A stretch of DNA of 64,000 nucleotides, from sequence record NC_048196.1; one strand, 5' to 3'. Under the pieces are notes generated by a model. That model was not told where the DNA came from. It did not search any database and was given only the letters and a program-made list of their open reading frames with translations. The stretch comes from Escherichia phage vB_EcoM_Schickermooser. The position numbers and the translations under genes were made by a program. This document shows positions 1-42,845 of the stretch, in pieces (position 1 is the stretch's first letter; each line of letters opens with the position of its first letter).

Positions 1-1088
1 ACTTTTCTGGAAAAGCTACGGAAGAGTCACTAGGTGCTCATATTGCTTACACTTTTGATTTTCAAGGTGGAGCGGCATCTGGTTATAATACCCCCCTTTT
101 ATTTAAGTCAGACGGATCTCCAGACATAACTTTTGAAAAGTTAGAAGCTCTCACTAAAATGGGAGAAGATGTTACAGAGTTACGTAAAAGCTATATTCAA
201 CAAGTGATGGATCGCATTTCTGAAAAAGTGCGTGAAAAATTTGAAGCTGGTTGGGATTGGGTTTACGTTATTGATGCTGACTTCGATGCGAACGTTGCAA
301 TTTTCTGTTCAGATAACGGTATGTTCTCTGTTGGCTTTAAAGTTGACGGACTGAATGTTGAAGTTGAAGAGGTTGCTAAACCTGTTGTTCGTGTTACTGA
401 TTATCAAGTTGTTGATGGTGATGTAATGATCTCCATTGATTTCTTTGAGGACGTTTTAGACGATGCTTTGAGTAATCTCGTTAAGAGTTCCTTGAAACAA
501 AGTCAAGTTAAAGATTATTTAGTGAAAGCTCACGCTAAAGCTAATACAAACTCTGTGGATGCAGAGGCTAACCCCGCAGGTGATAAATCTGCAAACACAA
601 CTGGAATCAATAAAGGAGAAACCCCTTTGGAAAATATCAACAAAGAAGAATTCCTGAAATCTGCTGAATTCCAAGAACTGATGAAAGCACAGATCGCTGA
701 AGCTGTAGAAAAAGCAGCCGCAGATGCACGTGCAGCCGCAGAACTTGAAGCACAGGAAAAAATCGCTAAGGCAGAACAGGAAGCAGAAGAACTTCGTAAA
801 GCTGAACAAGCTCGTATCGAAGAAGAATATACAACTGTTGTTAAATCCTATTCTTTCGTAGAAGAAGACAAAGTTGAAGCTCTCGTTAAATATCTGGTAG
901 ACAATAAAGATATCGCTGAAACTATCGTCAAAGCATTCGAAAAAGCACGTGCAGAAGTGGACGCAGTTAAGAAAGAATTTGGAGCAGAACGTGGTGTTGA
1001 TGTGATCAATACTCAACCTGTAGCTAAATCTTCTTCTGAACTGATTAGTCAGAAAGCTGCTGAACTTAAAAAAGCCCAGAAACAATAA
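1..1088 (+). CDS. prohead protease/scaffolding protein, C-terminal part (5' end outside window); possible internal in-frame scaffold start at 159
   Basis: Frame 3 is open from nt 3 with no stop before the ATG at 159 and there is no good RBS at 159; A/E/K-rich coiled-coil C-terminus typical of scaffolds; lies directly upstream of decoration and capsid genes (lambda C/Nu3-D-E order). Confidence 0.5.
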   Translation, partial: FSGKATEESLGAHIAYTFDFQGGAASGYNTPLLFKSDGSPDITFEKLEALTKMGEDVTELRKSYIQQVMDRISEKVREKFEAGWDWVYVIDADFDANVAIFCSDNGMFSVGFKVDGLNVEVEEVAKPVVRVTDYQVVDGDVMISIDFFEDVLDDALSNLVKSSLKQSQVKDYLVKAHAKANTNSVDAEANPAGDKSANTTGINKGETPLENINKEEFLKSAEFQELMKAQIAEAVEKAAADARAAAELEAQEKIAKAEQEAEELRKAEQARIEEEYTTVVKSYSFVEEDKVEALVKYLVDNKDIAETIVKAFEKARAEVDAVKKEFGAERGVDVINTQPVAKSSSELISQKAAELKKAQKQ

Positions 1089-1107
1089 TCTTAGGAGATT
1101 AAATTAA

Positions 1108-1506
1108 ATGGCTAAAGGAATTACTTTATCTAACTCTCGCCAGGAATTCGGACACCTGGTTCTGGGTGGAGTGTTTAGCTCTGACCTTGGACACTGTGTA
1201 CGTGAAGTTAACCTGGTTAAAACAGCAACCATGAAAATTGGTTCTATCCTGAAAGCTGACAACACTGAAGCTGCTAAAGCTGAAGCTGCCGATGCTGCTA
1301 AAGTTCTGATTTGGACTGATGCTCTGTTCGGTATTGATGATGTAGCAGTAGGTGACACTTTCACCGCAGTTGTTGGCGTACGTGATCTTACTCTGAACCG
1401 CTTTGCAGTATACTACAAAGATGGCTCCCTGGTAGATGACGCTGGCGTAGCAGCACTGGAAACACATGATCTGAAACTGACCGAAAAAGTCGTTTTCACT
1501 TCTTAA
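1108..1506 (+). CDS. head decoration protein (gpD-like, by position and size)
   Basis: 132 aa ORF with AGGAGA RBS between scaffold and major capsid gene; call rests on synteny, not on a verified motif. Confidence 0.45.
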   Translation: MAKGITLSNSRQEFGHLVLGGVFSSDLGHCVREVNLVKTATMKIGSILKADNTEAAKAEAADAAKVLIWTDALFGIDDVAVGDTFTAVVGVRDLTLNRFAVYYKDGSLVDDAGVAALETHDLKLTEKVVFTS

Positions 1507-28400: not shown

Positions 28401-31076
28401 ATGTTTCCAATTCCAATATTTACTATTATGACCAGCACTGGTGTCGTTCCTCTGCCAGCAGGTATTGTTAAAAAAGTAATCACTCTAGATTACCCAGATA
28501 ATGCTGGCAATTCTAATAGCAGTTTAGCAATTTTGCTTAATGATGGTAGATTGTTTACTCAAGGCGCAAACCTTTTTGGTGAGATTGCAGATGGAACTCG
28601 TAGTGCACGATTCAATAATTTCCACTTAGCTTCTACTGTAGTAGCGGATGTGTTTACCGCAGATCGTTGTTTTGTTATTAAAACTAACAGTGGGGGATGG
28701 CAATATTCAGGATTGACAGCAGGGTTGGTAGGATCTATAGCAGCAGGTGGTACGGATGCATGTGTAACCACTTGGACCAGCTTTCCATCTGTAATAACAG
28801 GGACTATCTCTTTAGCCAATCTTAAAGAGGTTAAGGGAGGATATAACAATACTCTCTGGTTAATGAATAGTGGTGTTCTTTATGGATCGGGTCAAAACAC
28901 AGTAGGCAGTTTAGGTGCAAGCACTACTAACGAAGTTTCTACTCCTCGTCAGATAACAAGCGCAGCAGTTGCTTTTGATGCAGGTTACAACCAATGTTCT
29001 TATGTCAACAATGTGGGAACCTTGCGTGTTTGTGGAGCCAGTAAAGGTTTAGCAGGTAATAATAACACAACAACAGCTTTTGTCAATGCCAAGATATCCG
29101 CTACTGAAACAGTGTATGTCAAAGATTACATCAATACAGTTTCCCAGACAATAGTTGTAGGAGATACCTCCGGTGGCACGGGTACAGTAAACTACTTATA
29201 TGTTAGATCTAATACAGAAACAACCTACACTAAACTGGATACCTTTGCAGCAGGTTTCTCAACATGGAAGTTTCCACCAAGCCGCCACTCTTTTTTCGTT
29301 GGGATTAATAATTCCTTGTGGGCTATTGGTAAGAACTACACTGCAAACTTAGGTTTGGGGTATGATTCTGCGAGCGGAGATCCACTCCAAGTGGGAAAAC
29401 CAGTTAAACCTGAAGGAGTGGGTTCTTGGGATATAAACAAGCTCACAAGCGTTCATACGCTGAATATGGATGTTACTAACCAATTAGGTTATCAAGGAAC
29501 CTTTTTCGTTTATAATGGAGATATGTATTATTCCGGTATTTGGAAAGATGGGAAAGCCTCGTATCTGTTCAATAGTGGTCTAAACTATAATAAATTCACA
29601 CCAATAGCAAGCTCCGTGATTACGGGCGATATTCTGGCAACTGGCTTAACTACAGATTCTTTAGGAATTTGTATTGTAGGTGGAACTAAACAGTTGACAC
29701 ATTCTGTTAGCCCAGAAGGAGGTAAACTTTTCAATATTAAATACACTTCTTCTGCCCCTGCAAACATGACAATATCATCTACTGGTTTAATGACTTTCCA
29801 TGCAGAAGGTGGTTTTGATGCAGGTATGACAGCCTTAAACGCTGAAGGAACAACTTTATCAGATACCTCTGGAGGATATGCTTCAACATTGAGCGTTTAC
29901 ACCCCTAGCTTATCTGCGATGGATGTAGGAACAACACAAACAATGGTAGCAGAAATAACGCCAACAGGAGCAGCAAGCTTACCTGGTATGGTTGTTGAGT
30001 ATTTCTCTAATGACCCTACGGTAGCAACAGTTGACCCCGTTACAGGCGTTATTACAGCGGTTGCTGATGGGGATTGTCGTATCGGTTGTAGAGCAACTTA
30101 TCAAGGTGTGGTAACTGCCGAAGATAGTTCTTATCTCGCAGTGAATGCTGTGGTGATTGTGATGGACTATGATTTGACGCAAGAAACTATTCCAACGGAT
30201 GTAAAGGTCAATAGGAGTAACCGTTATGCCAGGGCTTCTGGAGATATCCTTGTACCTACAGAGAGTTCTGCTCCCGTAGCACCTTTAGAATATGTTGGTA
30301 CAACTCCACAAGGTAGACGTGTTGTAGCAGCCAACCGTACACATATCTTTATCAACAATAACTTGACAACAGCTTCCCCGTGGTTGAAGACGAACTTGAC
30401 AGTCACAGCATCAACAATCAACTCTCCGGTTGGAACTACGGCTAACACTTACAAGTTAACACCTTCTACAACTTCAGGACAACATATTTTATCAGCAGTG
30501 AATACAGCCTCTGATATTACAGCAGGTAAGCACTGGGCGGCATCCGTATTCTTGAAGACAGACGGGATCACTAAAGTTAAACTCAAATTGACTTCAGGAG
30601 ATGAGATTAACGAAGGGACTTATGATCTTGTAGCTGGAACATTTACAGGTGCAGATGCAAACATAATCGATATGGGGAATGGTTGGTATCGTGTAATTCT
30701 ACACAAAGTGACAGTTGCCAAACAAGCATCTATAACCTATGAGATTATAGCTTTGAATGCAAGTGGATCAGACACTTTCGCAGGAGATGGTACGGCAGGT
30801 CTTATTGCTTGGGTTCCACAGCTTGAGATGGGTGATATGACAAATCCAGTTTGGGCGGGGACACCATTTGTTTGTTCTTATGCACGAGACACTACCAGTG
30901 CTGTTACCTTCACTATTCCTAAGAATGGACATACTGGCGTGGACATTTACCACACCGATGGTACTGTGCAACGAGAGGTCTTCACTGGTACAGCTACAAC
31001 TTGGATGTTGACGTTCACCGCCGCAAGTGCGGATTGGGGATCGAAGTTCATTACAGGTTTGAAATATTACGACTAA
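28401..31076 (+). CDS. tail fiber / receptor-binding protein with bacterial Ig-like (Big_2-type) domain
   Basis: 891 aa; segment TPTGAASLPGMVVEYFSNDPTVATVDPVTGVITAVADGDCRIGCRATYQGV matches Big_2 pattern. Confidence 0.6.
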   Translation: MFPIPIFTIMTSTGVVPLPAGIVKKVITLDYPDNAGNSNSSLAILLNDGRLFTQGANLFGEIADGTRSARFNNFHLASTVVADVFTADRCFVIKTNSGGWQYSGLTAGLVGSIAAGGTDACVTTWTSFPSVITGTISLANLKEVKGGYNNTLWLMNSGVLYGSGQNTVGSLGASTTNEVSTPRQITSAAVAFDAGYNQCSYVNNVGTLRVCGASKGLAGNNNTTTAFVNAKISATETVYVKDYINTVSQTIVVGDTSGGTGTVNYLYVRSNTETTYTKLDTFAAGFSTWKFPPSRHSFFVGINNSLWAIGKNYTANLGLGYDSASGDPLQVGKPVKPEGVGSWDINKLTSVHTLNMDVTNQLGYQGTFFVYNGDMYYSGIWKDGKASYLFNSGLNYNKFTPIASSVITGDILATGLTTDSLGICIVGGTKQLTHSVSPEGGKLFNIKYTSSAPANMTISSTGLMTFHAEGGFDAGMTALNAEGTTLSDTSGGYASTLSVYTPSLSAMDVGTTQTMVAEITPTGAASLPGMVVEYFSNDPTVATVDPVTGVITAVADGDCRIGCRATYQGVVTAEDSSYLAVNAVVIVMDYDLTQETIPTDVKVNRSNRYARASGDILVPTESSAPVAPLEYVGTTPQGRRVVAANRTHIFINNNLTTASPWLKTNLTVTASTINSPVGTTANTYKLTPSTTSGQHILSAVNTASDITAGKHWAASVFLKTDGITKVKLKLTSGDEINEGTYDLVAGTFTGADANIIDMGNGWYRVILHKVTVAKQASITYEIIALNASGSDTFAGDGTAGLIAWVPQLEMGDMTNPVWAGTPFVCSYARDTTSAVTFTIPKNGHTGVDIYHTDGTVQREVFTGTATTWMLTFTAASADWGSKFITGLKYYD

Positions 31077-31112
31077 TAAAAAAGGGAACCCGCAAAGGTT
31101 CCCTTTTCTTTT
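31077..31112. terminator. bidirectional rho-independent terminator at convergence of late (+) and early (-) modules
   Basis: GGGAACC-cgcaaa-GGTTCCC hairpin flanked by AAAA upstream and TTTTCTTTT downstream. Confidence 0.7.
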
Positions 31113-31139
31113 ATAAAAACTCTTTATAAATCAATAAGA

Positions 31140-32027
31140 TCAGAATGGAATATCATCGTCGAAGTCCATTGGAGGTTCTTCTTGATTACTTGGAGTTGGT
31201 TCTGGTTGTGGTTCAGGTTTCTTAACTTCTTTCTTCTCTTCTTTCTTAGGCTGTTCTGCGGAACCACGAATGGCAGCAGCAACTTTATCAGACAGAGCCA
31301 GAACTTTACGAGCAGAATCAATCAGATCTTCTACAGAGACAGTCTTGATGGTATGGTCTTTACAAGCATTGAGAATAGCGTGACCAACAGATGCCCCAAG
31401 ATCATAATCATTAATATCAACGCCACGAGATTCAGCAATTTCAGATTTCAGCGTGACAGTTGCAGATTGAACAACCCCAGCGATATCGAAAGCATCGCCT
31501 TTAACACCATTACGAATCAGTTCCAGTGCACCATTTACTGCGTGACCAGTTTCCAGACCTACAGTATCACGTTTTTTATAGGACTGCTTAGGAGCAGCAT
31601 CGTTGGAACCTTTATTGCCAGAAGATTTGTTAGACTTCTGAACACCATCGGTAGACAATACTGTAATACGAGATTTTTTAGTATTGTAGTAAGTTTTACC
31701 GCCTTTATTATCAACGCGATCAATATCAATACTTACTTCTACACCTTTTTCAATAGTGATCCAATTATCACCTTCTTTGACTTGCAGGTTTTCATAACCT
31801 TCTTTCAGTTCAATGTCACCAAGAGAAATCCAAACACCTTTCTCATCTGGTTTAGCACCTTTCTCTTTCAGAACAAGAGAAGCTCGGTGAGTTGAAACAA
31901 TCGTTTTTCCTTCCCAATGGAAGGTTTTAGGTTCAGCGAATTTATCCAGTTTAACGTAGTCTACGATACCAGTTGCATAAGTTACGGTTTTGCCTTTACG
32001 ATCAGTTTCAGTATTAATTACGGACAT
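31140..32027 (-). CDS. ssb: single-stranded DNA-binding protein
   Basis: C-terminal acidic tail DFDDDIPF (bacterial/phage SSB C-terminal motif) preceded by Pro/Glu/Lys-rich linker. Confidence 0.7.
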   Translation of the reverse strand: MSVINTETDRKGKTVTYATGIVDYVKLDKFAEPKTFHWEGKTIVSTHRASLVLKEKGAKPDEKGVWISLGDIELKEGYENLQVKEGDNWITIEKGVEVSIDIDRVDNKGGKTYYNTKKSRITVLSTDGVQKSNKSSGNKGSNDAAPKQSYKKRDTVGLETGHAVNGALELIRNGVKGDAFDIAGVVQSATVTLKSEIAESRGVDINDYDLGASVGHAILNACKDHTIKTVSVEDLIDSARKVLALSDKVAAAIRGSAEQPKKEEKKEVKKPEPQPEPTPSNQEEPPMDFDDDIPF

Positions 32028-32043
32028 TATTATCTCCTCTACA

Positions 32044-32436
32044 TTACATTAATTTTGCACAGAAAGAGCGGAGTCTTTCCATATCATCTTGCTCTAACAG
32101 GTATTTACCTTTACCTATTCCAACCCCAATTTCACCATTAGGAAAATGAACTATTTGCACTGGGAAACCTCCGAGTTTAATTGTGGCAGCTTTGCCTTCT
32201 TCGTCTATAACGTTTCGGATTGTATCTTGCAGTGAAATGAATTCTTTGTTTGTAACAGTGGTTTCAATTATTTCAGATGTTTCAACACGAGCAGTTAGCT
32301 TCTTGTTTCCACCTTGAATAACCAAAATTTGAAAATAAAAAGAGTTGTCAAGACCTACAACATTTTTCTCAACTAGTGTCAAACTGGTATAGTTTCCATA
32401 AACAGTTTCAACAGCTATCTTAGAACGTTCAGTCAT
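32044..32436 (-). CDS. hypothetical protein
   Basis: 130 aa ORF. Confidence 0.4.
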   Translation of the reverse strand: MTERSKIAVETVYGNYTSLTLVEKNVVGLDNSFYFQILVIQGGNKKLTARVETSEIIETTVTNKEFISLQDTIRNVIDEEGKAATIKLGGFPVQIVHFPNGEIGVGIGKGKYLLEQDDMERLRSFCAKLM

Positions 32437-32481
32437 TGAATGCTATCCTATCATAAAATGTTTAATATTGTCAAGCTTTAA

Positions 32482-33078
32482 TTACCAAGGAATATCATCT
32501 TCTTCTTCCGATTTGGTATCTACTTGAGGTGGACGTGGAACCTTAACCTCTTTAACAAAGCGAAGATATGGGAAACGCGTAGCGATTTTAATAACATGTT
32601 TGGCATCTTCTCTAACATCTTTGTGCAAGAAGCAGATCCCTGTTTCCAAAGTTGTTTCAAAATCTTTAGAGTAATAACAATCCTTTCCATCAAATGCAGC
32701 CTGGCAGATGGACAGATCAAACTCATTCAGAAAGGTTGTCATTACATTTGGGTCCATAATCATAAGGTTGCAAAGCTGACCATCACGTTCAAATTCAAAA
32801 ACGTGTTTAAGACCAGTAACACCCTCGTAGTTATCAGAAGCATCTTTGTTTCCTAGTTTACGAATATTAGTTCCCATCAAAGCAGATGCAATCAAGTCTT
32901 GTATTTGCTCTTCTGATCGATGTGCAGGAAGAGACGTGTAAAAATCCAGATCACGTCCAGCAATATCAAGAATACGCCAATCACGAACAGCACCGCCAGC
33001 CAAGACAGAATTAGGATCAGCGATCTTTAATACGGTAAGAATTTCTTTGGCAATATTGATTTGTTTTGATTTAGTCAT
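32482..33078 (-). CDS. minimal nucleotidyltransferase (Pol-beta/CCA-head-like) with SSB-like acidic C-terminal tail
   Basis: LAGGAVRDWRILDIAGRDLDF matches GGxVRD...DxD NTase head motif; C-terminus EEEDDIPW resembles SSB tail. Confidence 0.5.
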   Translation of the reverse strand: MTKSKQINIAKEILTVLKIADPNSVLAGGAVRDWRILDIAGRDLDFYTSLPAHRSEEQIQDLIASALMGTNIRKLGNKDASDNYEGVTGLKHVFEFERDGQLCNLMIMDPNVMTTFLNEFDLSICQAAFDGKDCYYSKDFETTLETGICFLHKDVREDAKHVIKIATRFPYLRFVKEVKVPRPPQVDTKSEEEDDIPW

Positions 33079-33289
33079 TGATACGCTCCACAGTTACTTT
33101 AACAATATCGTCCATATTAATCTCATCTCCCAAGACTTCAATAACACCTTCCTCATAAAGTCGAGCACATTCTTCCCATACTTCTGCTTCCGTCATTCCA
33201 CCTTCAATCTTATTTGCAAGACCTTTAATAACATCTTCATTTTGTTCATCAATAAGAATTGAAACATTAAAGCTCACTAGTTTACGCAT
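33071..33289 (-). CDS. hypothetical acidic protein
   Basis: 72 aa, acidic. Confidence 0.4.
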   Translation of the reverse strand: MRKLVSFNVSILIDEQNEDVIKGLANKIEGGMTEAEVWEECARLYEEGVIEVLGDEINMDDIVKVTVERIND

Positions 33290-33299
33290 TGTTTTCTCC

Positions 33300-33467
33300 T
33301 TATACCTCTAAACGGAAAGTTTCTTTAGATACAAAATCGTATCCACCTTTTTCAAGCCAGCCATTGTAAACCTCATCGGCTTGAGACTCTATCATAAAAT
33401 ACCGAGTGGTAACTTCGTCTCCGACAATACGCACAATTTTATAGCAAATCATGATACCATTTCCCAT
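33300..33467 (-). CDS. hypothetical small protein (55 aa, not in ORF track)
   Basis: ATG at 33467 preceded by GGAGGA RBS; fills the gap in a tightly packed operon. Confidence 0.4.
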   Translation of the reverse strand: MGNGIMICYKIVRIVGDEVTTRYFMIESQADEVYNGWLEKGGYDFVSKETFRLEV

Positions 33468-33658
33468 TAATCTTCCTCCAGATCAATTTCATTATAACAA
33501 TGTATGCAGAAACCATCATTGTGCATATGTTGTTCATAAGACATATCTTTACCACAAGACCAACAACGGATATCCCCATCGTCCCATTCACGTTCTTCTT
33601 CACCTTCAAATTCATCTGGTAGGTAAGGCATACCAAGACAATCTAAATCGTAATGCAT
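33467..33658 (-). CDS. small zinc-ribbon protein
   Basis: CWSC...CIHC pairs. Confidence 0.45.
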   Translation of the reverse strand: MHYDLDCLGMPYLPDEFEGEEEREWDDGDIRCWSCGKDMSYEQHMHNDGFCIHCYNEIDLEED

Positions 33659-33670
33659 ATCTCCTCCTAT

Positions 33671-33690
33671 AAAGGGGCAGAAGCCCCTTA
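33671..33690 (-). terminator. hairpin after DNA polymerase gene (weak terminator)
   Basis: GGGGC-AGAA-GCCCC stem-loop with short T/A flanks. Confidence 0.4.
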
Positions 33691-33706
33691 TAAAACAATG
33701 AGTTAA

Positions 33707-36304
33707 CTAGTGACAGGACGCCCAGGAGTTACCCACATCATATCCGGCAGTAAGCTGAACGTTAAGATTGTAAAATTCTCCAGCCTTAGTAACAGCTAAA
33801 GCAGCAAGTTCACCTGCCCGACTATAGGCTGTAAACCATCCACCTTTGGGAGATTCATGAATGTTAGCCCAAATTTGCCCTGTCTCTTTTTCCTTATTAT
33901 GCTTCCATTCTTCGACTTTAGCAAGGCATTCTTTATCAATTTTCTTTTGTTCTTCAGGATCGTCTACTTTTTTCCAACCTAATGATTCGGGTGAAAACCA
34001 TTTAAATTCTACAAGGTTACGAGAAACTTCAAGCTGGGCTTCATCGTGATATGCAATCATTTGTTGTACGAAGTCTTTATTCTTCCAGTCATCTTTAAAG
34101 AAGTCAACACTTAGTCCTTCTTCTTCGATCATATCATCATAAATAACCATTGCACGTTTAGCACAGATAACCCCACCGCTTTGGAACAGAGAGTTAAGAA
34201 TCGCATGAGCAGAACGAGTAGGAACCTTACGACCGTCAATACCCAAAACATATTGTTTACCAGTCTTAACCCAGAAATCGTTTAAACGTTCTTTAAGACG
34301 CGCCAATGGGAATGCAGCTTCCCAGAAAGCATCGAACACCAATTGACCTGTAAACTTATCGCTACCAATTGTTTTAGCAACCTTGTCGGCTTGTGCACCA
34401 TAGGTAATACCATACTTAACAGATTTAGCAGGACTACGTTCAAATTTACGTCCAATAGTTTCAGTGATACGTTTTGCCATCATTGTGTGAACATCATTAG
34501 GTTTCTCTAACAACAGAGCGTTACAATATTCGTGTGGCTCCGGCTCGTATCGCCAACAGTAGTGTGATTCAATTTTTGCTTCCAAAGAGTCGAAGTCGTA
34601 GCCAATCTGGAAGTATTTAGGAACCTCTACACCAAACAAGTTACGCATCTCCCATCCAAACAAAGATGTGACACGAGGAATATTAGCTACAGACCTATGC
34701 TTCATACGAGAGGTTGCAGCATCACATGTAGCGGCTGGTGTAGGAATACGCCCATCCGCCCTTACTGCGGCTAAGAAACCTTTATCATATTCTTGGTCTT
34801 CTTCATCTTCTTCCCAATCAGCACCACCACCTAAAATAGAGTTCCTACGATGCTTATACGTTAAGTATTCTACAATCTGTGTAGCATAAGGGAATTTCTC
34901 ACCCAAAGCTTGCAGGTTAGGACAGATTTCTTTTTCCTGACCTTTGGTAAAACATGGGTTAGTCAATACTTTAAGACCGCGACCTTTACCTTTTGCTATA
35001 CGCTCTTGAATCTTCCTTTCCAAGGTTTCCGGTGTGCACTCCAGATGATCACAACGGTCCTGACAAAAATTAGAAGATAAAGTTTGCTCAACGTAAGCTC
35101 GAATACCTTTCTGAAGTTCTTCCTCGCTCTTTTTAATCTTGGTGCCAGATTTAAGAGTCAAATCTTTATCTTTATATTCCGATGGTACCCAACCTAATCC
35201 TACAAGCCAGTTTTTAATATGGGTTGTATCGTTTAATGTTGCAGGGATGTGAGGATCACATAAAGGCTCATCTGCTGCAACTGGCAGTTTCCACTCTTTC
35301 CCCAACATAACTAACCACCAATCTCCATCCCTCTCTTCCAAATGACCATCATGTTTCTTAGCAAAATTGATCATATGGTTAGTTGGTTCTAAGTTCTTTT
35401 TAATTTGCAACTTAGGTGGAATAAAAGCTTTAAGATAACCTTTTGTTGCTGGTTTAGGTGGCAAAATAGGCTCAACGAGTAAACGAAGACGCTCCATTTC
35501 TGCATCCAAAAAAGCAAGGTTCTCTTCTGCTTGCTTCATGTTAAAAGCAAACCCACGGTGTTCCTGGCGCGTGATAATGTCTGCTACACGTTGTTCAAGT
35601 TCAAATGGACCTTCCCATTTATCATAATCACCCCATTCTTCCATGAGGTAATTATATACACTTGTGTTGGCTTTGTTATCATAGATACAGTAATAAAGCA
35701 TATCCGCAGCAAAAGTCTTAAATCGATCTTCTTCTGGAATCTCTTTACGGAAATCTATTTTTACATCACCGCCTGCTTTTCGAGAAAGTGCTGCCAAGCT
35801 ATGTCCTGATTTGCCCTCAATCTTTCGATCTGGGTTTAACACTTTACTCAAAATCAAAGAGTCAATAAGTTTTACCTTATTTTTGCCCCACGTGTTATAT
35901 TTAACACTGTAATCTAATCCATAAAACAGTTTTGTAGCCAACCAGTCATAGTTGATACCGTTGTGTGCCACAGCCATTTCAACCAAATATTCAGGCTTGT
36001 CTTTAAAATAACCTTCATGATTAATAAAGTCTGGGAAATCTTTTAGTTGAAAATGTGTGTAATCTTGCGCCACATATTCTTTAAGAACATACGTGTATTT
36101 ACCATCTGATTCTTCATAAGGACGCCCGTCAAAAATATACTTAGGGCCATCGTGGAAAGCTACTATCTCTCCTGTTTCATGGTTCTCTAAGACAATACAG
36201 TGCATTTGAAATGTGTCTTTGAGACGATAAGGACTAGCTAAATAATCGATAGTGTCATTATTCAACAATCCGTTTGCTTCAATATCCCATGTAAACTTAC
36301 TCAC
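33707..36304 (-). CDS. DNA polymerase, family A (T7 gp5-like) with 3'-5' exonuclease domain
   Basis: Exo I motif WDIEANGL; motif B RSPAKSVKYGITYG; motif C HDEAQLEV. Confidence 0.85.
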   Translation of the reverse strand: MSKFTWDIEANGLLNNDTIDYLASPYRLKDTFQMHCIVLENHETGEIVAFHDGPKYIFDGRPYEESDGKYTYVLKEYVAQDYTHFQLKDFPDFINHEGYFKDKPEYLVEMAVAHNGINYDWLATKLFYGLDYSVKYNTWGKNKVKLIDSLILSKVLNPDRKIEGKSGHSLAALSRKAGGDVKIDFRKEIPEEDRFKTFAADMLYYCIYDNKANTSVYNYLMEEWGDYDKWEGPFELEQRVADIITRQEHRGFAFNMKQAEENLAFLDAEMERLRLLVEPILPPKPATKGYLKAFIPPKLQIKKNLEPTNHMINFAKKHDGHLEERDGDWWLVMLGKEWKLPVAADEPLCDPHIPATLNDTTHIKNWLVGLGWVPSEYKDKDLTLKSGTKIKKSEEELQKGIRAYVEQTLSSNFCQDRCDHLECTPETLERKIQERIAKGKGRGLKVLTNPCFTKGQEKEICPNLQALGEKFPYATQIVEYLTYKHRRNSILGGGADWEEDEEDQEYDKGFLAAVRADGRIPTPAATCDAATSRMKHRSVANIPRVTSLFGWEMRNLFGVEVPKYFQIGYDFDSLEAKIESHYCWRYEPEPHEYCNALLLEKPNDVHTMMAKRITETIGRKFERSPAKSVKYGITYGAQADKVAKTIGSDKFTGQLVFDAFWEAAFPLARLKERLNDFWVKTGKQYVLGIDGRKVPTRSAHAILNSLFQSGGVICAKRAMVIYDDMIEEEGLSVDFFKDDWKNKDFVQQMIAYHDEAQLEVSRNLVEFKWFSPESLGWKKVDDPEEQKKIDKECLAKVEEWKHNKEKETGQIWANIHESPKGGWFTAYSRAGELAALAVTKAGEFYNLNVQLTAGYDVGNSWASCH

Positions 36305-37098
36305 TATTCCTCCTTTCTAATGTTCTCCAGAACCCACTGAAGTTCTTTTAAACTTAAACTTCTTACTCCCGCAGTTTTACTAGCTTCGGCTTTAAGTAAC
36401 GGGTAAGCCTCAATGATACGCGTTTTAAGATCAGAAGTCAAGGCTTTTAAAAAATAGGTAGATGCTTCAGATAAAGAATCTTCTTCTGATAACACTTTAC
36501 CTGCACTTGCTCCCGCTCTCCTAACGGCTATGTCGTAGTCTTTACTGTTGCCTAATACGAATAGTCGATTTTCTCCTAAAACAACGGGAGAACGCTTCTC
36601 GTTGCGTTTAATCCATACCTGGAATACACAAGGAACATCCCAAGGTTCTCCATGAAGAATAAAAGATCCTTTTGGACATTCTTCTTCGTAAAGAAGATGC
36701 ATGTGGGGATTTAGTTTGTGTGCAAAAAAGATTTTTTGAAATGTGCGAGGCAAGATAAAACAAATACCACCTTCGTTATCCAACATTTCAGCACAATGGT
36801 TAAAGAACTTAATGGCAAGACTAGCATTTTTTCCAAACGGAGGATTACCGACAAAAGCAGTTACACTACCAACAGACTCAACAGATTGAGCTAAAAAATC
36901 TGCCTCAATACAATCTTCAAACTTAGGGTCAATATCAAAAGAAGTTATGTTTTTAAAACAAGAAGAGAAAGCTCCTTCTCCCGCAGATGGTTCTACGTAG
37001 TTAGCTTCCTCTCCAAAAATTTCTTTGATCTTATCACATAAGAACCCCGCATAAGCGGGGTTAGTGTAATATTGATCAAGTGTGTTCAACTTGCTCAA
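36304..37098 (-). CDS. DNA methyltransferase (N6-adenine type, NPPF)
   Basis: Motif I EPSAGEGAF followed by motif IV GNPPFGK. Confidence 0.7.
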   Translation of the reverse strand: MSKLNTLDQYYTNPAYAGFLCDKIKEIFGEEANYVEPSAGEGAFSSCFKNITSFDIDPKFEDCIEADFLAQSVESVGSVTAFVGNPPFGKNASLAIKFFNHCAEMLDNEGGICFILPRTFQKIFFAHKLNPHMHLLYEEECPKGSFILHGEPWDVPCVFQVWIKRNEKRSPVVLGENRLFVLGNSKDYDIAVRRAGASAGKVLSEEDSLSEASTYFLKALTSDLKTRIIEAYPLLKAEASKTAGVRSLSLKELQWVLENIRKEE

Positions 37099-37107
37099 TA
37101 GTCCTCC

Positions 37108-37539
37108 TTAGTTGTTAGCGAACTCAATAGTGAGGTCAACTTTACCATCGTCAGAAATAACCATGTTTTTGGTATTTTTAAAGATGATATCTACTTTACC
37201 TTCACTTACACGACAGAATGCAACACCATCTGCAACTTTATCGATATAATATTTGTAAGAAAGAATACCCACTTTACTACGACCAGCACCTTTTGTGAAA
37301 GAAGGGCTTACATCGAAACGGAAACCTTTAGAAGAAACAACACGGTAAGAACGTCCAGTTGGAAGATGTTCAATAACAGAGACATTGTTCTCAACAACTT
37401 TTACAGCAAACTCTTCAGGATGATCCTCAACAATCATATGTGGGATGGCAAATGCCAACGCTTGTTTGTGTTTAATAACACCAGCACCCAGAGCACCAGC
37501 AGCTTTAACTTTTGCATTCAGATCGATTGTCATACGCAT
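37108..37539 (-). CDS. hypothetical protein
   Basis: 143 aa, first gene after promoter. Confidence 0.4.
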   Translation of the reverse strand: MRMTIDLNAKVKAAGALGAGVIKHKQALAFAIPHMIVEDHPEEFAVKVVENNVSVIEHLPTGRSYRVVSSKGFRFDVSPSFTKGAGRSKVGILSYKYYIDKVADGVAFCRVSEGKVDIIFKNTKNMVISDDGKVDLTIEFANN

Positions 37540-37572: not shown

Positions 37573-37601
37573 AGTATAAGTCCCTTCCGTAAAGTTGTCA
37601 A
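37573..37601 (-). promoter_or_regulatory. sigma70-type promoter (TTGACA-N17-TATACT)
   Basis: On minus strand: -35 TTGACA (37601..37596), 17-nt spacer, -10 TATACT (37578..37573). Confidence 0.6.
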
Positions 37602-37615
37602 CAGGTATTTTTAAT

Positions 37616-37634
37616 AAAAGGGCCGAAGCCCTTA
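37616..37634 (-). terminator. terminator after primase-helicase gene
   Basis: AAGGGC-CGAA-GCCCTT hairpin overlapping stop codon, followed on minus strand by TTATTAAAAA. Confidence 0.5.
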
Positions 37635-39410
37635 ATAGTTGCTATCCGTAGGCAAATTAGCAGGATTGTTGAAATACTGCTCTTTGTCATGCAGAGTTGC
37701 AGTTCTAATGTCATAGTAAAACTGCCCTGCCGGACCCGTTTCCGAGAACTCACGGTTTTTTAGGATAAAGCAATGAGTCGTATTGCGTTCTACAGGGTCT
37801 TCAGCGGCTTTATCTCGTTCCAAAGCCAAGGTAATACCAGCACCTTTAGCCAAGAAACTACTACCCATTGCATCGTCCTCTGTTAAGTGTTCATTGCCAC
37901 CATTAGCTGACTTCTTAACGTGTGAGATGACGATAATAGTTATAGCATACTCTTTCATGATTCGCTTCAACCATGTTGCTAACTCTTCCTGGGCTTGAAC
38001 ATCCATACCAGAAAGCAAATCAGAATAAGGGTCGATAACAAGAATTGTTACTCCAAAATAGATGATCATCTCCAAAACTTTTTCTTTGATAGACTCCACA
38101 TCTGCTCCACGATCATCACACACATAAAAACGTGGTGATCCATCTTCTCTTTCGTAAAAATCTAGGATTTTTTCTTTATTCTCTTCCAAGATTTGAAATT
38201 TCTCTTCCGGTGTTTTCCTGTGTAGAGGAATATGCAAGAAAGAGGACAACAGGTTACGAGAATATTTCTTATAAGTTGCTTCCAAGGACAGAATACCTAG
38301 GGTATGTTCTGGGTGTGCAACGATAATATGTTTGGTGATCTCGTTCACCATCAAAGTTTTACCGATACTGGTCTTTGCCAGGATGACTGTAATCTCTTCC
38401 TCTACTAAACCACCACCCAGCATATTTGCAGCAACACGCATAAAAGGAGGCAAGGTAATCATCTTGGATTCCAAGCATTCTAATGCAGCTTCATACAAGA
38501 CATTAGAAGCATAAACACCTGCTGGGGTGTATAGACGAGCACTCCAAAAAGCTTTTACGAAATCTTTTGCACGACCTTCTTCCAGATACTGATTGGCATC
38601 CTTAAGATCCATCTGCATACGGTAGACTTTGTTACGAGGCAGCACCTTAACAATATTTTCAAATGCCTCATTACCTGCTTTGTCATTATCCATGCAAACA
38701 ATAATCTTCTTAAATTTTTCAAAGAAAGGATATTGTGCCTGAACTTGTTTATACATACTGGTTTCACCAGTTGTGCCACTAACTACTGCTGGAAGTTCAT
38801 ATTTGTTGTCCAAGTTTTCAGACAGCATTTGATAAGCTGCCAGAGCATCGTGTTCACCACCTGTAATTACCACAGTATGAGAACGGTCTGCAAAACGAAT
38901 TTGTCCAAAAAGATCTACATCTTTACCTACTTGACCAATAGGTTTACTGAAATCTTTAGGATGAATACGACGCTTAAAACCAACCAATTCTTTACCGATA
39001 GTAGTCGGATATAAACAACTTTCTACTACCATCTGATCCCCTTCCTGACGGTATTCATAACGAACACCATAGAAAGATGAAACTTTTTCTTTAATGCCTC
39101 GATAACCACGTGGGTTGGTTGATGTTTCTTGAACAATTTTACGATGAATCTGTTTATTAAATTCCGAACCCACAATCTCCTCCTCTTCTTCTAAAACTTC
39201 ACCATTTTCTCGTAACCATTCTACGCTAGGAATAGTGTATTCACACGCAAAGCACTTAGCACCTTTATGCTCTCCATTAGAATCTAATCCATAAACCATC
39301 AGGTTATTACGAGAGCGATCCTTGCCATTTTTCATGCAGCGCGGACAACCTGTATGCCCTTCCTTGCTAAGATCAACATCAAATCCATATTTAGTTATAA
39401 TGTGCGACAC
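37632..39410 (-). CDS. DNA primase-helicase (T7 gp4-like)
   Basis: N-terminal Cys4 zinc ribbon (CPRCMKNG...CFACEY); C-terminal helicase with Walker A (SIGKT) and Walker B-like (VIDPYSDL). Confidence 0.85.
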   Translation of the reverse strand: MSHIITKYGFDVDLSKEGHTGCPRCMKNGKDRSRNNLMVYGLDSNGEHKGAKCFACEYTIPSVEWLRENGEVLEEEEEIVGSEFNKQIHRKIVQETSTNPRGYRGIKEKVSSFYGVRYEYRQEGDQMVVESCLYPTTIGKELVGFKRRIHPKDFSKPIGQVGKDVDLFGQIRFADRSHTVVITGGEHDALAAYQMLSENLDNKYELPAVVSGTTGETSMYKQVQAQYPFFEKFKKIIVCMDNDKAGNEAFENIVKVLPRNKVYRMQMDLKDANQYLEEGRAKDFVKAFWSARLYTPAGVYASNVLYEAALECLESKMITLPPFMRVAANMLGGGLVEEEITVILAKTSIGKTLMVNEITKHIIVAHPEHTLGILSLEATYKKYSRNLLSSFLHIPLHRKTPEEKFQILEENKEKILDFYEREDGSPRFYVCDDRGADVESIKEKVLEMIIYFGVTILVIDPYSDLLSGMDVQAQEELATWLKRIMKEYAITIIVISHVKKSANGGNEHLTEDDAMGSSFLAKGAGITLALERDKAAEDPVERNTTHCFILKNREFSETGPAGQFYYDIRTATLHDKEQYFNNPANLPTDSNY

Positions 39411-40652: not shown

Positions 40653-41600
40653 CTACAAACTTTCAATAACCTGGCGTCGCAATTCGTTTGCATCTGCCAG
40701 ATTATAATGTGTTCGAACATGTTCCGCTAAGAACAAGCCGCGATCTTCCCGATAGTTCGGATTGCGAAGAAGCTTAACAATTTCGTAATGCCATTCTGCT
40801 TTATTCTCTGCATAAGCAACAGCGCGAGCATCTACAGGGTTAAAATAAGGTAATACCTTAGAACAAACAATCGGAATACCTTTTGCCCCAGCTTCAAGGA
40901 TTTTGAGATTACTTTTACAATTATTAAAATCATTATCTACCAAAGGAGCTATAGCAATAGCATGACTTTCGTAAACACTCATGTAATTATCTAAATCTTT
41001 TACAGCAGCTTTATATTTGGCATTTGGTAAATTTCTACGGATCTTAATCCACTCTTGCCCTGTGATACTCTGCGAAGCTTCATACCCCGCAATAGTAAGA
41101 AGTTCATCATCAAAAGTGTTAGAGACTAGTCGTAAATCAGGTTCATGACTAGCACCTCCAGCCCATACAATAGGGGTACCGGATGAACGGTCATTTGACA
41201 AAGTAAATTGTCCGCTATCAAAAGGAAGTGCATTTCGGATTACAACAACATTTCTATTTAAATGACGGATTTTATATGCCAAATATTCCGTAGTCACAAT
41301 GACCACATCAGCAAGCTTAACCATAGCCACAATAGCGTGAGTGTTTGACTCATATAAACTTGCTAAATAATGTTCTGGATTAAGTTGGTAGAAATCATCT
41401 AAATCTACAACAATCTTAACACCTTGACGTTTCAGGGACAGAACATATTCTGCACCTTTAGAATGAATACGGTTAAACACGACAACATCTTTCTTAGGCT
41501 GAAAATTATTGTTGTTAAATGGTATAACAATACGATGATAATCACAACCGCTGTGAGGTTTTGCATCAATTTTCAGTTTAGTCCATTTTTTATTTGACAT
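40653..41600 (-). CDS. glycosyltransferase, GT-B fold (paralog 2)
   Basis: KSNLKILEAGAKGIPIVCS motif; start moved to ATG 41600 (GAGGAGG RBS) to avoid 50-nt overlap. Confidence 0.55.
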   Translation of the reverse strand: MSNKKWTKLKIDAKPHSGCDYHRIVIPFNNNNFQPKKDVVVFNRIHSKGAEYVLSLKRQGVKIVVDLDDFYQLNPEHYLASLYESNTHAIVAMVKLADVVIVTTEYLAYKIRHLNRNVVVIRNALPFDSGQFTLSNDRSSGTPIVWAGGASHEPDLRLVSNTFDDELLTIAGYEASQSITGQEWIKIRRNLPNAKYKAAVKDLDNYMSVYESHAIAIAPLVDNDFNNCKSNLKILEAGAKGIPIVCSKVLPYFNPVDARAVAYAENKAEWHYEIVKLLRNPNYREDRGLFLAEHVRTHYNLADANELRRQVIESL

Positions 41601-42273
41601 GTGCCAGTGCCTCCTCATAAGAAATTCGGATTTTCCCATTTTTAATATCTTCTAAAGACGCTTTATATTCTTCCCAGTTAATGCCAATAGCAGCTTCTTT
41701 CTCTTCTTTTGTCAGGTTAGCAAAAGGCATAGGATTGTTTCCAAAAACATCGTCTGGGTGGATATAAGCCATGATACGAAGTGGACAAGGTATTGCCTGA
41801 ATACCCTGATTCAAACCAGCAGCTTTCAAACGGTGTACCCATTCAGCATCTTCAAAACCATAGCCGTGAGTGTAAGGGCGGAAATAACCCATCTTCTCAA
41901 CAACGGCACGAGAATACATTGCAAATTGACACATTGCAAGCTCCCAGAGAATAACTTCTCCTTTACTCCCAACAACTTTATCTTTGAAATACTCCGGCAT
42001 ACCAAAGAAATCCCATCCTCCAGAGACAGCTTGATCTACAAAATATGTTTCCCATCCCTCCATGATTGGGTAGCAATCGTCGTCAAAAATAAACCAATAA
42101 TCATAACCTTCTTCATAAAACTGGTGCATAAGTTCATTCCTGGCGTAAGCTACACCTTTACGATCTGGATCGTTGAATACTCGAAAATCTGCATGTGGAT
42201 CTGTTACAAGATAGTCTTTAAGTGGACGGACACCTACAGTGATAACACCCACTCCGATTTTAATATTTTCCAT
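41590..42273 (-). CDS. glycosyltransferase, GT-A fold (GT2-like)
   Basis: KGVAYARNELMHQFYEEGYDYWFIFDDDCYP resembles GT2 nucleotide-sugar binding region with DxD. Confidence 0.5.
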   Translation of the reverse strand: MENIKIGVGVITVGVRPLKDYLVTDPHADFRVFNDPDRKGVAYARNELMHQFYEEGYDYWFIFDDDCYPIMEGWETYFVDQAVSGGWDFFGMPEYFKDKVVGSKGEVILWELAMCQFAMYSRAVVEKMGYFRPYTHGYGFEDAEWVHRLKAAGLNQGIQAIPCPLRIMAYIHPDDVFGNNPMPFANLTKEEKEAAIGINWEEYKASLEDIKNGKIRISYEEALAHVK

Positions 42274-42281
42274 TTTCTCTC

Positions 42282-42845
42282 CTAGATAGTTTTACTGTGA
42301 TCGTGACAGTGTAATAAATGATGTATAGACCGTTGAGGATTTGTTTGACCTAATCTGTAAATGTGAAACAGATACATTCCCCGCATCAATCCTAACCTCT
42401 TTCCTTTTTCATGTAAAGTGCGAGAGAAAATTAAGTCGAATTGGATAGATTTTTCTTCGAAAGGAATTTCATTCCACAATGATTTTCTAAAAAGCAAAAA
42501 GAAACCTGCCAGAGGTGTTCCGAAAGGAACTTCTTCAACACTCACTTTATGATATTCTCTTGCAATCTTAGCATATTCTATATGGTTTAGAATGTCTGGA
42601 TCATCGTTAATTTGGTTAGAGAAAAGCTGATAACCACTACCTAACCTGTTACAAGTTGCACCTATTACATCAAAAGGCGGGTTTGACATAACAAGCTCTT
42701 CAAGCATAGATGGTTGATCAGGTAGGAGGAACATCGTATCGGTATCTCTTAAACACACCCAACTATCATCTGGAAGAACGGCAATAGCTTCATTGATAGC
42801 CTTGCCGATATTTCCTGTCAGATAGGGAGTAATATAATAAATCAT
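42282..42845 (-). CDS. putative glycosyltransferase-like protein (weak)
   Basis: DxD-like LRDTDTMF; strong RBS. Confidence 0.3.
   Translation of the reverse strand: MIYYITPYLTGNIGKAINEAIAVLPDDSWVCLRDTDTMFLLPDQPSMLEELVMSNPPFDVIGATCNRLGSGYQLFSNQINDDPDILNHIEYAKIAREYHKVSVEEVPFGTPLAGFFLLFRKSLWNEIPFEEKSIQFDLIFSRTLHEKGKRLGLMRGMYLFHIYRLGQTNPQRSIHHLLHCHDHSKTI

Follow-up and report, generated by a model that had tools for sequence, protein, structure and literature searches.

The window analysed here is a 64,000-nucleotide stretch of DNA from Escherichia phage vB_EcoM_Schickermooser (NC_048196.1). Positions 31000-37200 of the window share 97.6-97.7% nucleotide identity with phAPEC8 and its relatives, and the genome is that of a phAPEC8-like Escherichia myovirus (Phapecoctavirus, Stephanstirmvirinae). 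The region contains a block of replication genes in which a small nucleotidyltransferase (NTase) gene and the gene for an SSB-like protein lie close together, with the following features:

31080-31107, no strand assigned: hairpin terminator, closing the replication operon
31140-32027, minus strand: SSB-like protein of 295 aa, gp085 ortholog, two genes downstream of the NTase
31143-31166, minus strand: host-type SSB-Ct, D-F-D-D-D-I-P-F, the C-terminal end of the SSB-like protein
32044-32436, minus strand: conserved 130-aa protein, gp084 ortholog, PHROG 16560, between the NTase and SSB-like genes
32482-33078, minus strand: NTase gene, 198 aa, ortholog of phAPEC8 gp083 (YP_007348551.1)
32485-32499, minus strand: SSB-Ct-type tip, D-D-I-P-W, directly before the stop codon (32482-32484)
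32500-32553, minus strand: Pro-rich variable linker, approximately residues 176-193, predicted to be disordered (AF2 and ortholog comparison)
32944-32952, minus strand: catalytic DxD, D43-L-D45, both Asp invariant in 150 of 150 family representatives
32980-32997, minus strand: glycine-rich loop of motif A, G28-G-A-V-R-D33, aligning to GGAVRD of CCA-adding enzymes
33071-33658, minus strand: three small ORFs of 72, 55, and 63 aa, located between the polymerase and NTase genes
33707-36304, minus strand: family A DNA polymerase, gp079 ortholog (Pfam DNA_pol_A, E 1e-13; PHROG 17)
37573-37601, minus strand (read 37601-37573): best promoter-like site for the polymerase-to-SSB gene block, at the start of the block
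37632-39410, minus strand: primase-helicase, upstream of that promoter-like site

The polymerase gene lies upstream of the NTase gene and is transcribed in the same direction. The 72-aa ORF overlaps the start of the NTase gene by 8 nt, and the hairpin terminator is shared by the replication operon and a convergent tail-protein gene. The gene order of the Stephanstirmvirinae, which is primase-helicase, DNA polymerase, (small ORFs), NTase, 130-aa protein, and SSB-like protein, is kept in phAPEC8, muut, KP13-26, PsgM04F, and the locus L010. The 130-aa protein is always found between the NTase and SSB-like genes across the subfamily, even where the NTase is tipless; it had no match in Pfam, NCBIfam, or PADLOC, and may partner either of the two neighbouring proteins. 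A 264-aa gene (36304-37098, minus strand) abuts the DNA polymerase gene and is annotated as an N6-adenine methyltransferase or as 'DarB-like anti-restriction', with a weak Pfam match to Eco57I (E 0.017). Its position looks like a variable slot within the replication block, because PsgM04F has an endonuclease there instead. The polymerase also differs in length, from 865 residues here to 1,099 and 1,189 in two related metagenomic contigs, L010 (6285-9584, plus strand) and L021 (1-1740, plus strand), which suggests an insertion, either an intein or an additional domain, in the longer polymerases. The primase-helicase has no acidic tail of the T7 gp4 kind and ends in ...LPTDSNY.

The preliminary description of this DNA had reported a 198-aa protein with a GGAVRD...DLD motif and the ending ...EEEDDIPW, and had called it a minimal nucleotidyltransferase with a head resembling that of CCA-adding enzymes and poly(A) polymerases (CCA/PAP). 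The protein is indeed encoded at 32482-33078 on the minus strand, and the assignment is supported by both fold and motifs. The AF2 model (overall pLDDT 77.5) has an ordered core extending to about residue 176 with an alpha/beta NTase fold, and motif A aligns to that of CCA-adding enzymes. We conclude that gp083 is a stand-alone nucleotidyltransferase of the Pol-beta superfamily with a class-II CCA/PAP-like head. A search of 1.84 billion representatives with the family profile gave 1,036 matches at E <=1e-3, mostly of 175-230 aa, so that the family exceeds 1,000 representatives at 50% identity; conservation was counted, and a neighbour-joining tree built, from 150 of the 1,036. G28 and G29 are present in 149 of the 150 aligned sequences (the remaining row is a gap) and D43 and D45 in all of them, and for this reason gp083 is probably an active, if still putative, enzyme. 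Conservation reaches at least 94% for A27, A30, R32, W34, Y84, and K164, with R32 and W34 above 95%, and the position of E95, the third catalytic carboxylate, is acidic in just 104 of the 150. When the PDB was searched with a profile made from the close alignment, only chance matches were obtained (Cas12f, E 0.03); the profile from the wide alignment matched CCA-adding enzymes, through motif A alone. PADLOC returned nothing for the NTase, and NCBIfam nothing above threshold. The possibility that the NTase is itself an SSB, that is, an OB-fold ssDNA-binding protein, was ruled out by the alpha/beta NTase fold of the model, in which no OB-fold was found; no SSB family in Pfam, PHROG, or NCBIfam was matched either.

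An SSB-like gene ending in DFDDDIPF had been placed two genes away, and this too proved correct. The C-terminus of the encoded protein is ...PSNQEEPPMDFDDDIPF, and its last 12 residues, EPPMDFDDDIPF, are identical to those of E. coli SSB (PDB 1EQQ). In the predicted structure, residues 1-125 form an OB-like beta domain and residues 156-253 a four-helix bundle, and the tail is disordered. Although annotated 'SSB', the protein is not a canonical SSB by sequence (PHROG 4477, 'unknown function'), and its tail alone matches SSB models. Host-type tips, such as DFDDDIPF, DDSDLPF, or DDDVPF, terminate most of the 120 homologs listed (P0270-P0389). The codons of the tail vary synonymously among phages, which argues that the tail mimics the host tip at the protein level. 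Because the SSB-like protein of the NTase operon carries the host tip, the phage already exploits the reading of SSB-Ct.

In about 20 of the 120 listed homologs the tip is internal and is followed by a conserved extension of 14-16 aa ([AS]P[ILV]GLQY...); one such extended variant, representing 110 member sequences, has 99% identity to the window protein. The copy in the window has no extension. Loci of SSB-like homologs were taken from L002 (9026-9973), L004 (9064-10017), and L021 (4001-4933). In both L021 and PsgM04F, the extended 3' end of the SSB-like gene overlaps with an endonuclease-like ORF of 164 aa, and the extension thus resembles the junction of a cassette, either mobile or of the homing-endonuclease type, targeting the conserved DNA that encodes the tail; the muut protein has the same extension without the endonuclease-like ORF. 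Such an extension would hide the free C-terminal Phe on which SSB-Ct readers depend. Reading of the tip may therefore be accessory, as in some phages the tip of the SSB-like protein is masked without obvious harm.

The NTase ends in ...KSEEEDDIPW. Its TGG codon is followed directly by TAA (32482-32487), so that a free alpha-carboxylate follows the aromatic residue. The tail had been described as nearly identical to the SSB C-terminal peptide. The orthologs P0004 and P0006 end in DFEDDIPW and DFQDDIPW, each matching DFDDDIPF of E. coli SSB at six of eight positions, and the ortholog ends NDFEDDIPW and EDFQDDIPW are closer to the SSB-Ct MDFDDDIPF than is the window copy, E-E-E-D-D-I-P-W, which ends in Trp as against the [IL]-P-F consensus of SSB-Ct. 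The three lineages closest to SSB-Ct all have Trp at the last position; almost all of the 120 listed SSB-like homologs have Phe, or the tip plus the extension. Among 10 orthologs with 58-95% identity, nine end in DDIPW and one in DSFPW, and the 10-15 residues that precede the tip differ in both length and sequence. The AF2 model has no secondary structure past residue 176, with a mean pLDDT of 55 for residues 181-190 and 43 for residues 191-198, and values below 50 throughout residues 189-198. Because the tip is conserved in diverged orthologs behind a variable linker that is predicted to be disordered, it is a real, selected feature rather than an accident. A conserved tip, a divergent linker, and a tail predicted by AF2 to be disordered together make the signature of a short linear docking motif. 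As judged from sequence, the NTase tip is a genuine and selected short linear motif of the SSB-Ct type, with a putative binding function.

Endings of this kind are rare in the phage. The pattern [DE][ILVM]P[FWY] terminates 2 of the 3,878 stop-terminated frames in the window, namely those of the NTase and the SSB-like protein, and the 147.7-kb phAPEC8 genome contains no further protein with a [DE]IP[FW] tip besides these two. Across all fetched loci, 16 of 532 distinct ORFs of at least 100 aa end in [ILVM]P[FWY]; all 16 belong to the NTase or SSB-like families, and none of the approximately 516 unrelated control ORFs has such a tip. A transfer of the tip by cassette exchange (the sequence GAT ATT CCT TGG is identical in distant lineages) was rejected, as the flanking linkers are unrelated and codon bias explains the identity (GAT 0.79, ATT 0.56, CCT 0.51). 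Because the tip codons are those preferred by the phage, their identity between lineages carries no information.

Acidic aromatic tails serve unrelated docking as well. The only other one in the phAPEC8 genome belongs to the RNR small subunit (41244-42329, minus strand, NC_020079.1), which ends in the classical R1-binding tail ...DDEELDF. In the same genome the 63-aa hypothetical protein gp046 (124794-124985, minus strand) ends in ...GGDELQRLPF, which is of the xLPF form but not acidic beside the tip.

Within the family as a whole, most members have no special tail. Tips are found in distant members such as P0016 (...NFPDDIPW), P0119 (...SSNDIPW), P0158 (...YPDDGIPF), P0034 (...VESIPY), and P0110 (...EKPIPF), and other C-termini are acidic and aromatic (...WDEEF, ...FSDDDF, ...DESWETPF). 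In the neighbour-joining tree of the 150 representatives, IP[FWY] tips occur in at least four to five separate places, with tail-less relatives between them. From composition, 0.14 such endings would be expected among 147 representatives (Poisson P (>=5) ~4e-7). The NTase of the Justusliebigvirus muut, which infects the same host and is 36% identical, ends in ...NNEEFKI without a tip, and no second tip-bearing protein was found in the approximately 66 kb of muut scanned (two stretches). The KP13-26 NTase also has no tip and carries a different extension of 40 aa. Since muut and KP13-26, close relatives from the same subfamily, do without it, as do most family members, the tip is an accessory module that is dispensable for the core function.

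All genomic contexts of tipped members that were seen are phage-like, and the annotatable ones consist of replication genes: a DNA polymerase, a primase-helicase, an ATP-dependent ligase, or an SSB-like protein. For example, a tipped NTase adjoins the primase-helicase in L011, and in L012 the gene of the NDIPW-tipped P0119 overlaps the end of an ATP-dependent DNA ligase gene. The loci of the tipped P0034 and P0110 contain mostly small unannotated phage ORFs. Scans of viral contigs with P0016, P0158, and P0119 gave no loci, and the contigs of these three were recovered through exact-protein look-up. A Pfam scan of the N-terminal extensions of longer family members revealed no informative domain fusion. 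Near P0119 in L012, an exonuclease (413-1486, plus strand, PHROG 107) ends in ...DDSDALDDFDDF (...DDFDDF), an acidic aromatic tail in the style of T7.

Two known systems are relevant for the comparison. E. coli SSB recruits at least 17 partners via its C-terminal tip (PMC7145534, PMC10018359), and lambda Red-beta is a phage recombination protein that also reads this tip (PMC6393309). With bacterial SSB-Ct, gp083 shares the extreme C-terminal position, the acidic run followed by Ile-Pro-aromatic, the disordered linker, and the conservation of the unit. It differs in that its tip sits on an enzyme, not on an ssDNA-binding protein, is probably monovalent where SSB is tetravalent, and ends in Trp in the main lineages where SSB-Ct ends in Phe. 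The acidic tails of T7 gp2.5 and gp4, invoked earlier as a precedent, are an apt comparison, as the T7 tails compete for one site on the polymerase: the gp4 helicase-primase and the gp2.5 SSB carry similar acidic, aromatic-ended tails that vie for basic patches on the DNA polymerase (10.64898/2026.05.20.726333). There, as here, two proteins of one phage replication system carry similar tails. The T7 tails, ...DTDF and ...DGDF, however lack the IPF form and are read by the phage polymerase; in our phage an NTase bears the second tail, and the tail of the SSB-like partner is an exact copy of the host tip.

Several rival explanations were weighed. In public annotations the gene is called 'nucleotidyltransferase' or 'putative tRNA nucleotidyl transferase / poly(A) polymerase'. 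If the latter were right, gp083 would act on RNA, as a CCA-adding or tRNA-repairing enzyme or as a poly(A) polymerase, and its tail would be unconnected with SSB partners. We consider this improbable, although motif A does align to GGAVRD...DxD of the CCA-adding enzymes and the phage (phAPEC8) encodes 11 tRNAs. The head and motif A are common to gp083 and the class-II enzymes, but gp083 is about half their size (198 aa versus 372-580 aa in the matched CCA-adding and poly(A) polymerase chains) and has no neck, body, or tail domains. The match to Pfam PolyA_pol (PF01743) scores 14.9 against a cut-off of 23 (E 0.035) and covers only residues 26-67, and TIGR02692 scores 12.2 against a cut-off of 438.8. 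The RRD motif is absent, with NEFDLSIC in the place of motif B, and EDxxR (motif D) is not conserved, as the family positions of E157-D158 vary (D, W, A, or E at 157; K, E, S, or G at 158). Moreover, CCA is encoded in the genome at all 11 tRNAs of phAPEC8 (NC_020079.1, 59143-61148, L019) and at all 15 of muut (NC_052657.1, 8243-11279, L022), which speaks against the phage needing a CCA-adding enzyme of its own; the 64-kb window itself contains no tRNA genes. Because the similarity is restricted to motif A, the domains and the RRD and EDxxR motifs are missing, and CCA is encoded, gp083 was not filed as a CCA-adding enzyme or poly(A) polymerase, and the corresponding annotation is probably over-specific. 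A role on tRNA or poly(A) would also leave the conserved and recurrent SSB-type tip and the replication-module context unexplained. Profile searches detected no sequence relationship of gp083 to NP_344798.1, a stand-alone CCA-head protein (PDB 2LA3), or to the MenT toxins (PDB 8AN4), which differ from gp083 in acting on tRNA acceptor ends in a toxin-antitoxin context. We know of no SSB-type tip on NP_344798.1 or on NTase toxins of the MenT type. A resemblance to the SSB tail that is coincidental or neutral, leaving the tail without function, is already disfavoured and seems very improbable indeed: only five residues match, and their codons are the preferred ones of the phage, but the tip has been kept across orthologs of 58-95% identity despite turnover of the linker, recurs in independent branches, and is absent from the control ORFs. 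As a third alternative, the tail might act within its own molecule as a nucleic-acid mimic, folded into the basic groove of the enzyme and released by substrate, with no intermolecular docking. The acidic tails of SSB, T7 gp2.5, and T4 gp32 have been proposed to fold back in this manner, acidic tails are established as auto-inhibitory for ssDNA-binding proteins, and the gp083 tail is both acidic and carried on a flexible linker. Such self-regulation is hardly likely here, as the conserved element is the D-I-P-aromatic tip rather than net charge (P0158 and P0009 have basic linkers), the tail of the AF2 model (pLDDT below 50) is not docked on the core, and most family members function without any tail.

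The remaining alternative stems from a distant relationship to Gad2 (Gabija anti-defence 2), a phage protein of 400 aa with a predicted NTase domain that is required to overcome Gabija; the copy of Gad2 in Bacillus phage SPbetaL7 is toxic, and its mechanism was unresolved as of February 2026 (10.1101/2023.05.01.538930; PMC12904381). Precomputed matches to the Gad2 family of Pfam (PF26128) exist for many family members including P0009, some of them 'faint' or 'weak', and for the window protein's own cluster, P0001, there is none. An hhalign comparison of the family with the experimentally verified Gad2 of a Brevibacillus prophage gave a probability of 89% (E 2e-6) over 121 columns, corresponding to Gad2 residues 15-139, and pairwise BLASTP against the verified Gad2 gave E 0.079. 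Both have phage-borne NTase heads of the Pol-beta type with the core hAGGxxxxxF/W...DxD(F/Y)Y and the motif FDF/L-S/T-I/V-C. In contrast to the 198-aa gp083, Gad2 has about 400 aa with a C-terminal region of 250 aa that gp083 lacks, and it has no SSB-type tip, the verified homolog ending in ...EMNWGG. Gad2 belongs to an anti-defence locus of a temperate Bacillus phage, the gp083 gene to the replication operon of a virulent coliphage. Since the hhalign match covers the head only, we take the gp083 family and Gad2 to have a common head domain, without gp083 being a Gad2 ortholog. The NTases of the MNT type were rejected as the family of gp083, their active site reading GS...SDxD and not AGGAxRDW...DxD; an MNT-like phage NTase clade makes competitor cyclic dinucleotides (10.1101/2022.06.09.495361).

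On this basis gp083 could be an anti-defence or host-takeover effector of the Gad2 type. Its tip would serve as bait that plugs the SSB-Ct pocket of a helicase or nuclease which normally reads SSB in host repair or defence, and its NTase would then nucleotidylylate that protein or its DNA end, or simply block it. We regard this as unlikely. The precomputed PF26128 matches, the head homology, the requirement for Gad2 against Gabija, and the toxicity of the SPbetaL7 copy favour it, as do the toxicity on over-expression of a family-annotated NTase of phage Emajogi and the patchy, accessory spread of the tip, which fits arms-race evolution. Against it, the homology comprises only some 120 head residues, the C-terminal part of Gad2 is missing from gp083, the window protein's own cluster is without a Gad2 Pfam match, the gene occupies a conserved position in a replication operon and not a variable anti-defence island, and neither PADLOC nor the anti-defence literature yielded anything specific. 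In addition, no class-II-type NTase is, to our knowledge, able to modify proteins. A more speculative version, which we hold to be rather doubtful, combines both ideas. In this version, small Gad2-related NTases would work at the SSB hub, having acquired the host SSB-Ct as an 'address label' independently in several lineages; the tip would deliver the NTase to an SSB-reading repair or defence protein or to SSB-coated phage ssDNA, where nucleotidylylation of a DNA end or a protein would disarm DNA-targeting immunity. If this version is true, gp083 would be the first enzyme-borne mimic of the SSB tail, and it could open a way to understand how Gad2 acts against Gabija.

The best reading, which we hold with evenly balanced confidence, is that gp083 is a replication-module NTase, probably active, which its SSB-Ct-type tip would tether to readers of SSB tails. 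The conserved copy of the SSB peptide, as seen in the alignments, suggests that the enzyme may be delivered to the SSB hub of replication and repair. According to this proposal, gp083 would be expressed from the replication gene block together with the polymerase, the 130-aa protein, and the SSB-like protein, and its ...DDIPW tip with the free C-terminus would most likely insert into the type of pocket that reads ...DDDIPF of the host SSB and the phage SSB-like protein. The analysis shows the fold, the catalytic residues, and the operon context of gp083, as well as the conservation, disorder, and recurrence of its tip; from there we infer the binding to such pockets, the fit of Trp in them, the partner, and the acceptor substrate. 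Candidate readers would be host SSB-interacting proteins and/or replisome and recombination proteins of the phage. Docking may hold the NTase where ssDNA is coated with SSB, or allow it to compete with SSB at such places, and the docked NTase would then transfer nucleotides onto a 3'-OH or another acceptor.

The gene and its fold are already known and annotated; what is new is the conserved, recurrent tip of SSB type, together with the link to Gad2. The combination of an NTase with an SSB-like tail had been put forward as not previously described, and no description of it was found in the literature searched (8 million full texts), where searches yielded no mention of DDIPW, no SSB-Ct-like tip on a non-SSB enzyme, and no account of the phAPEC8 NTase. 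Every tip carrier found in that literature is an ssDNA-binding protein itself. SSB tails are a central address system of bacterial genome maintenance, and an enzyme bearing the SSB label would, if the proposal is true, be a new viral way to plug into, or jam, the SSB hub. The NTase family is large and resides in phage replication modules, and Gad2 is its only experimentally studied relative. The tip thus provides a concrete and cheap handle for finding partners, which may lead to the function of the family.
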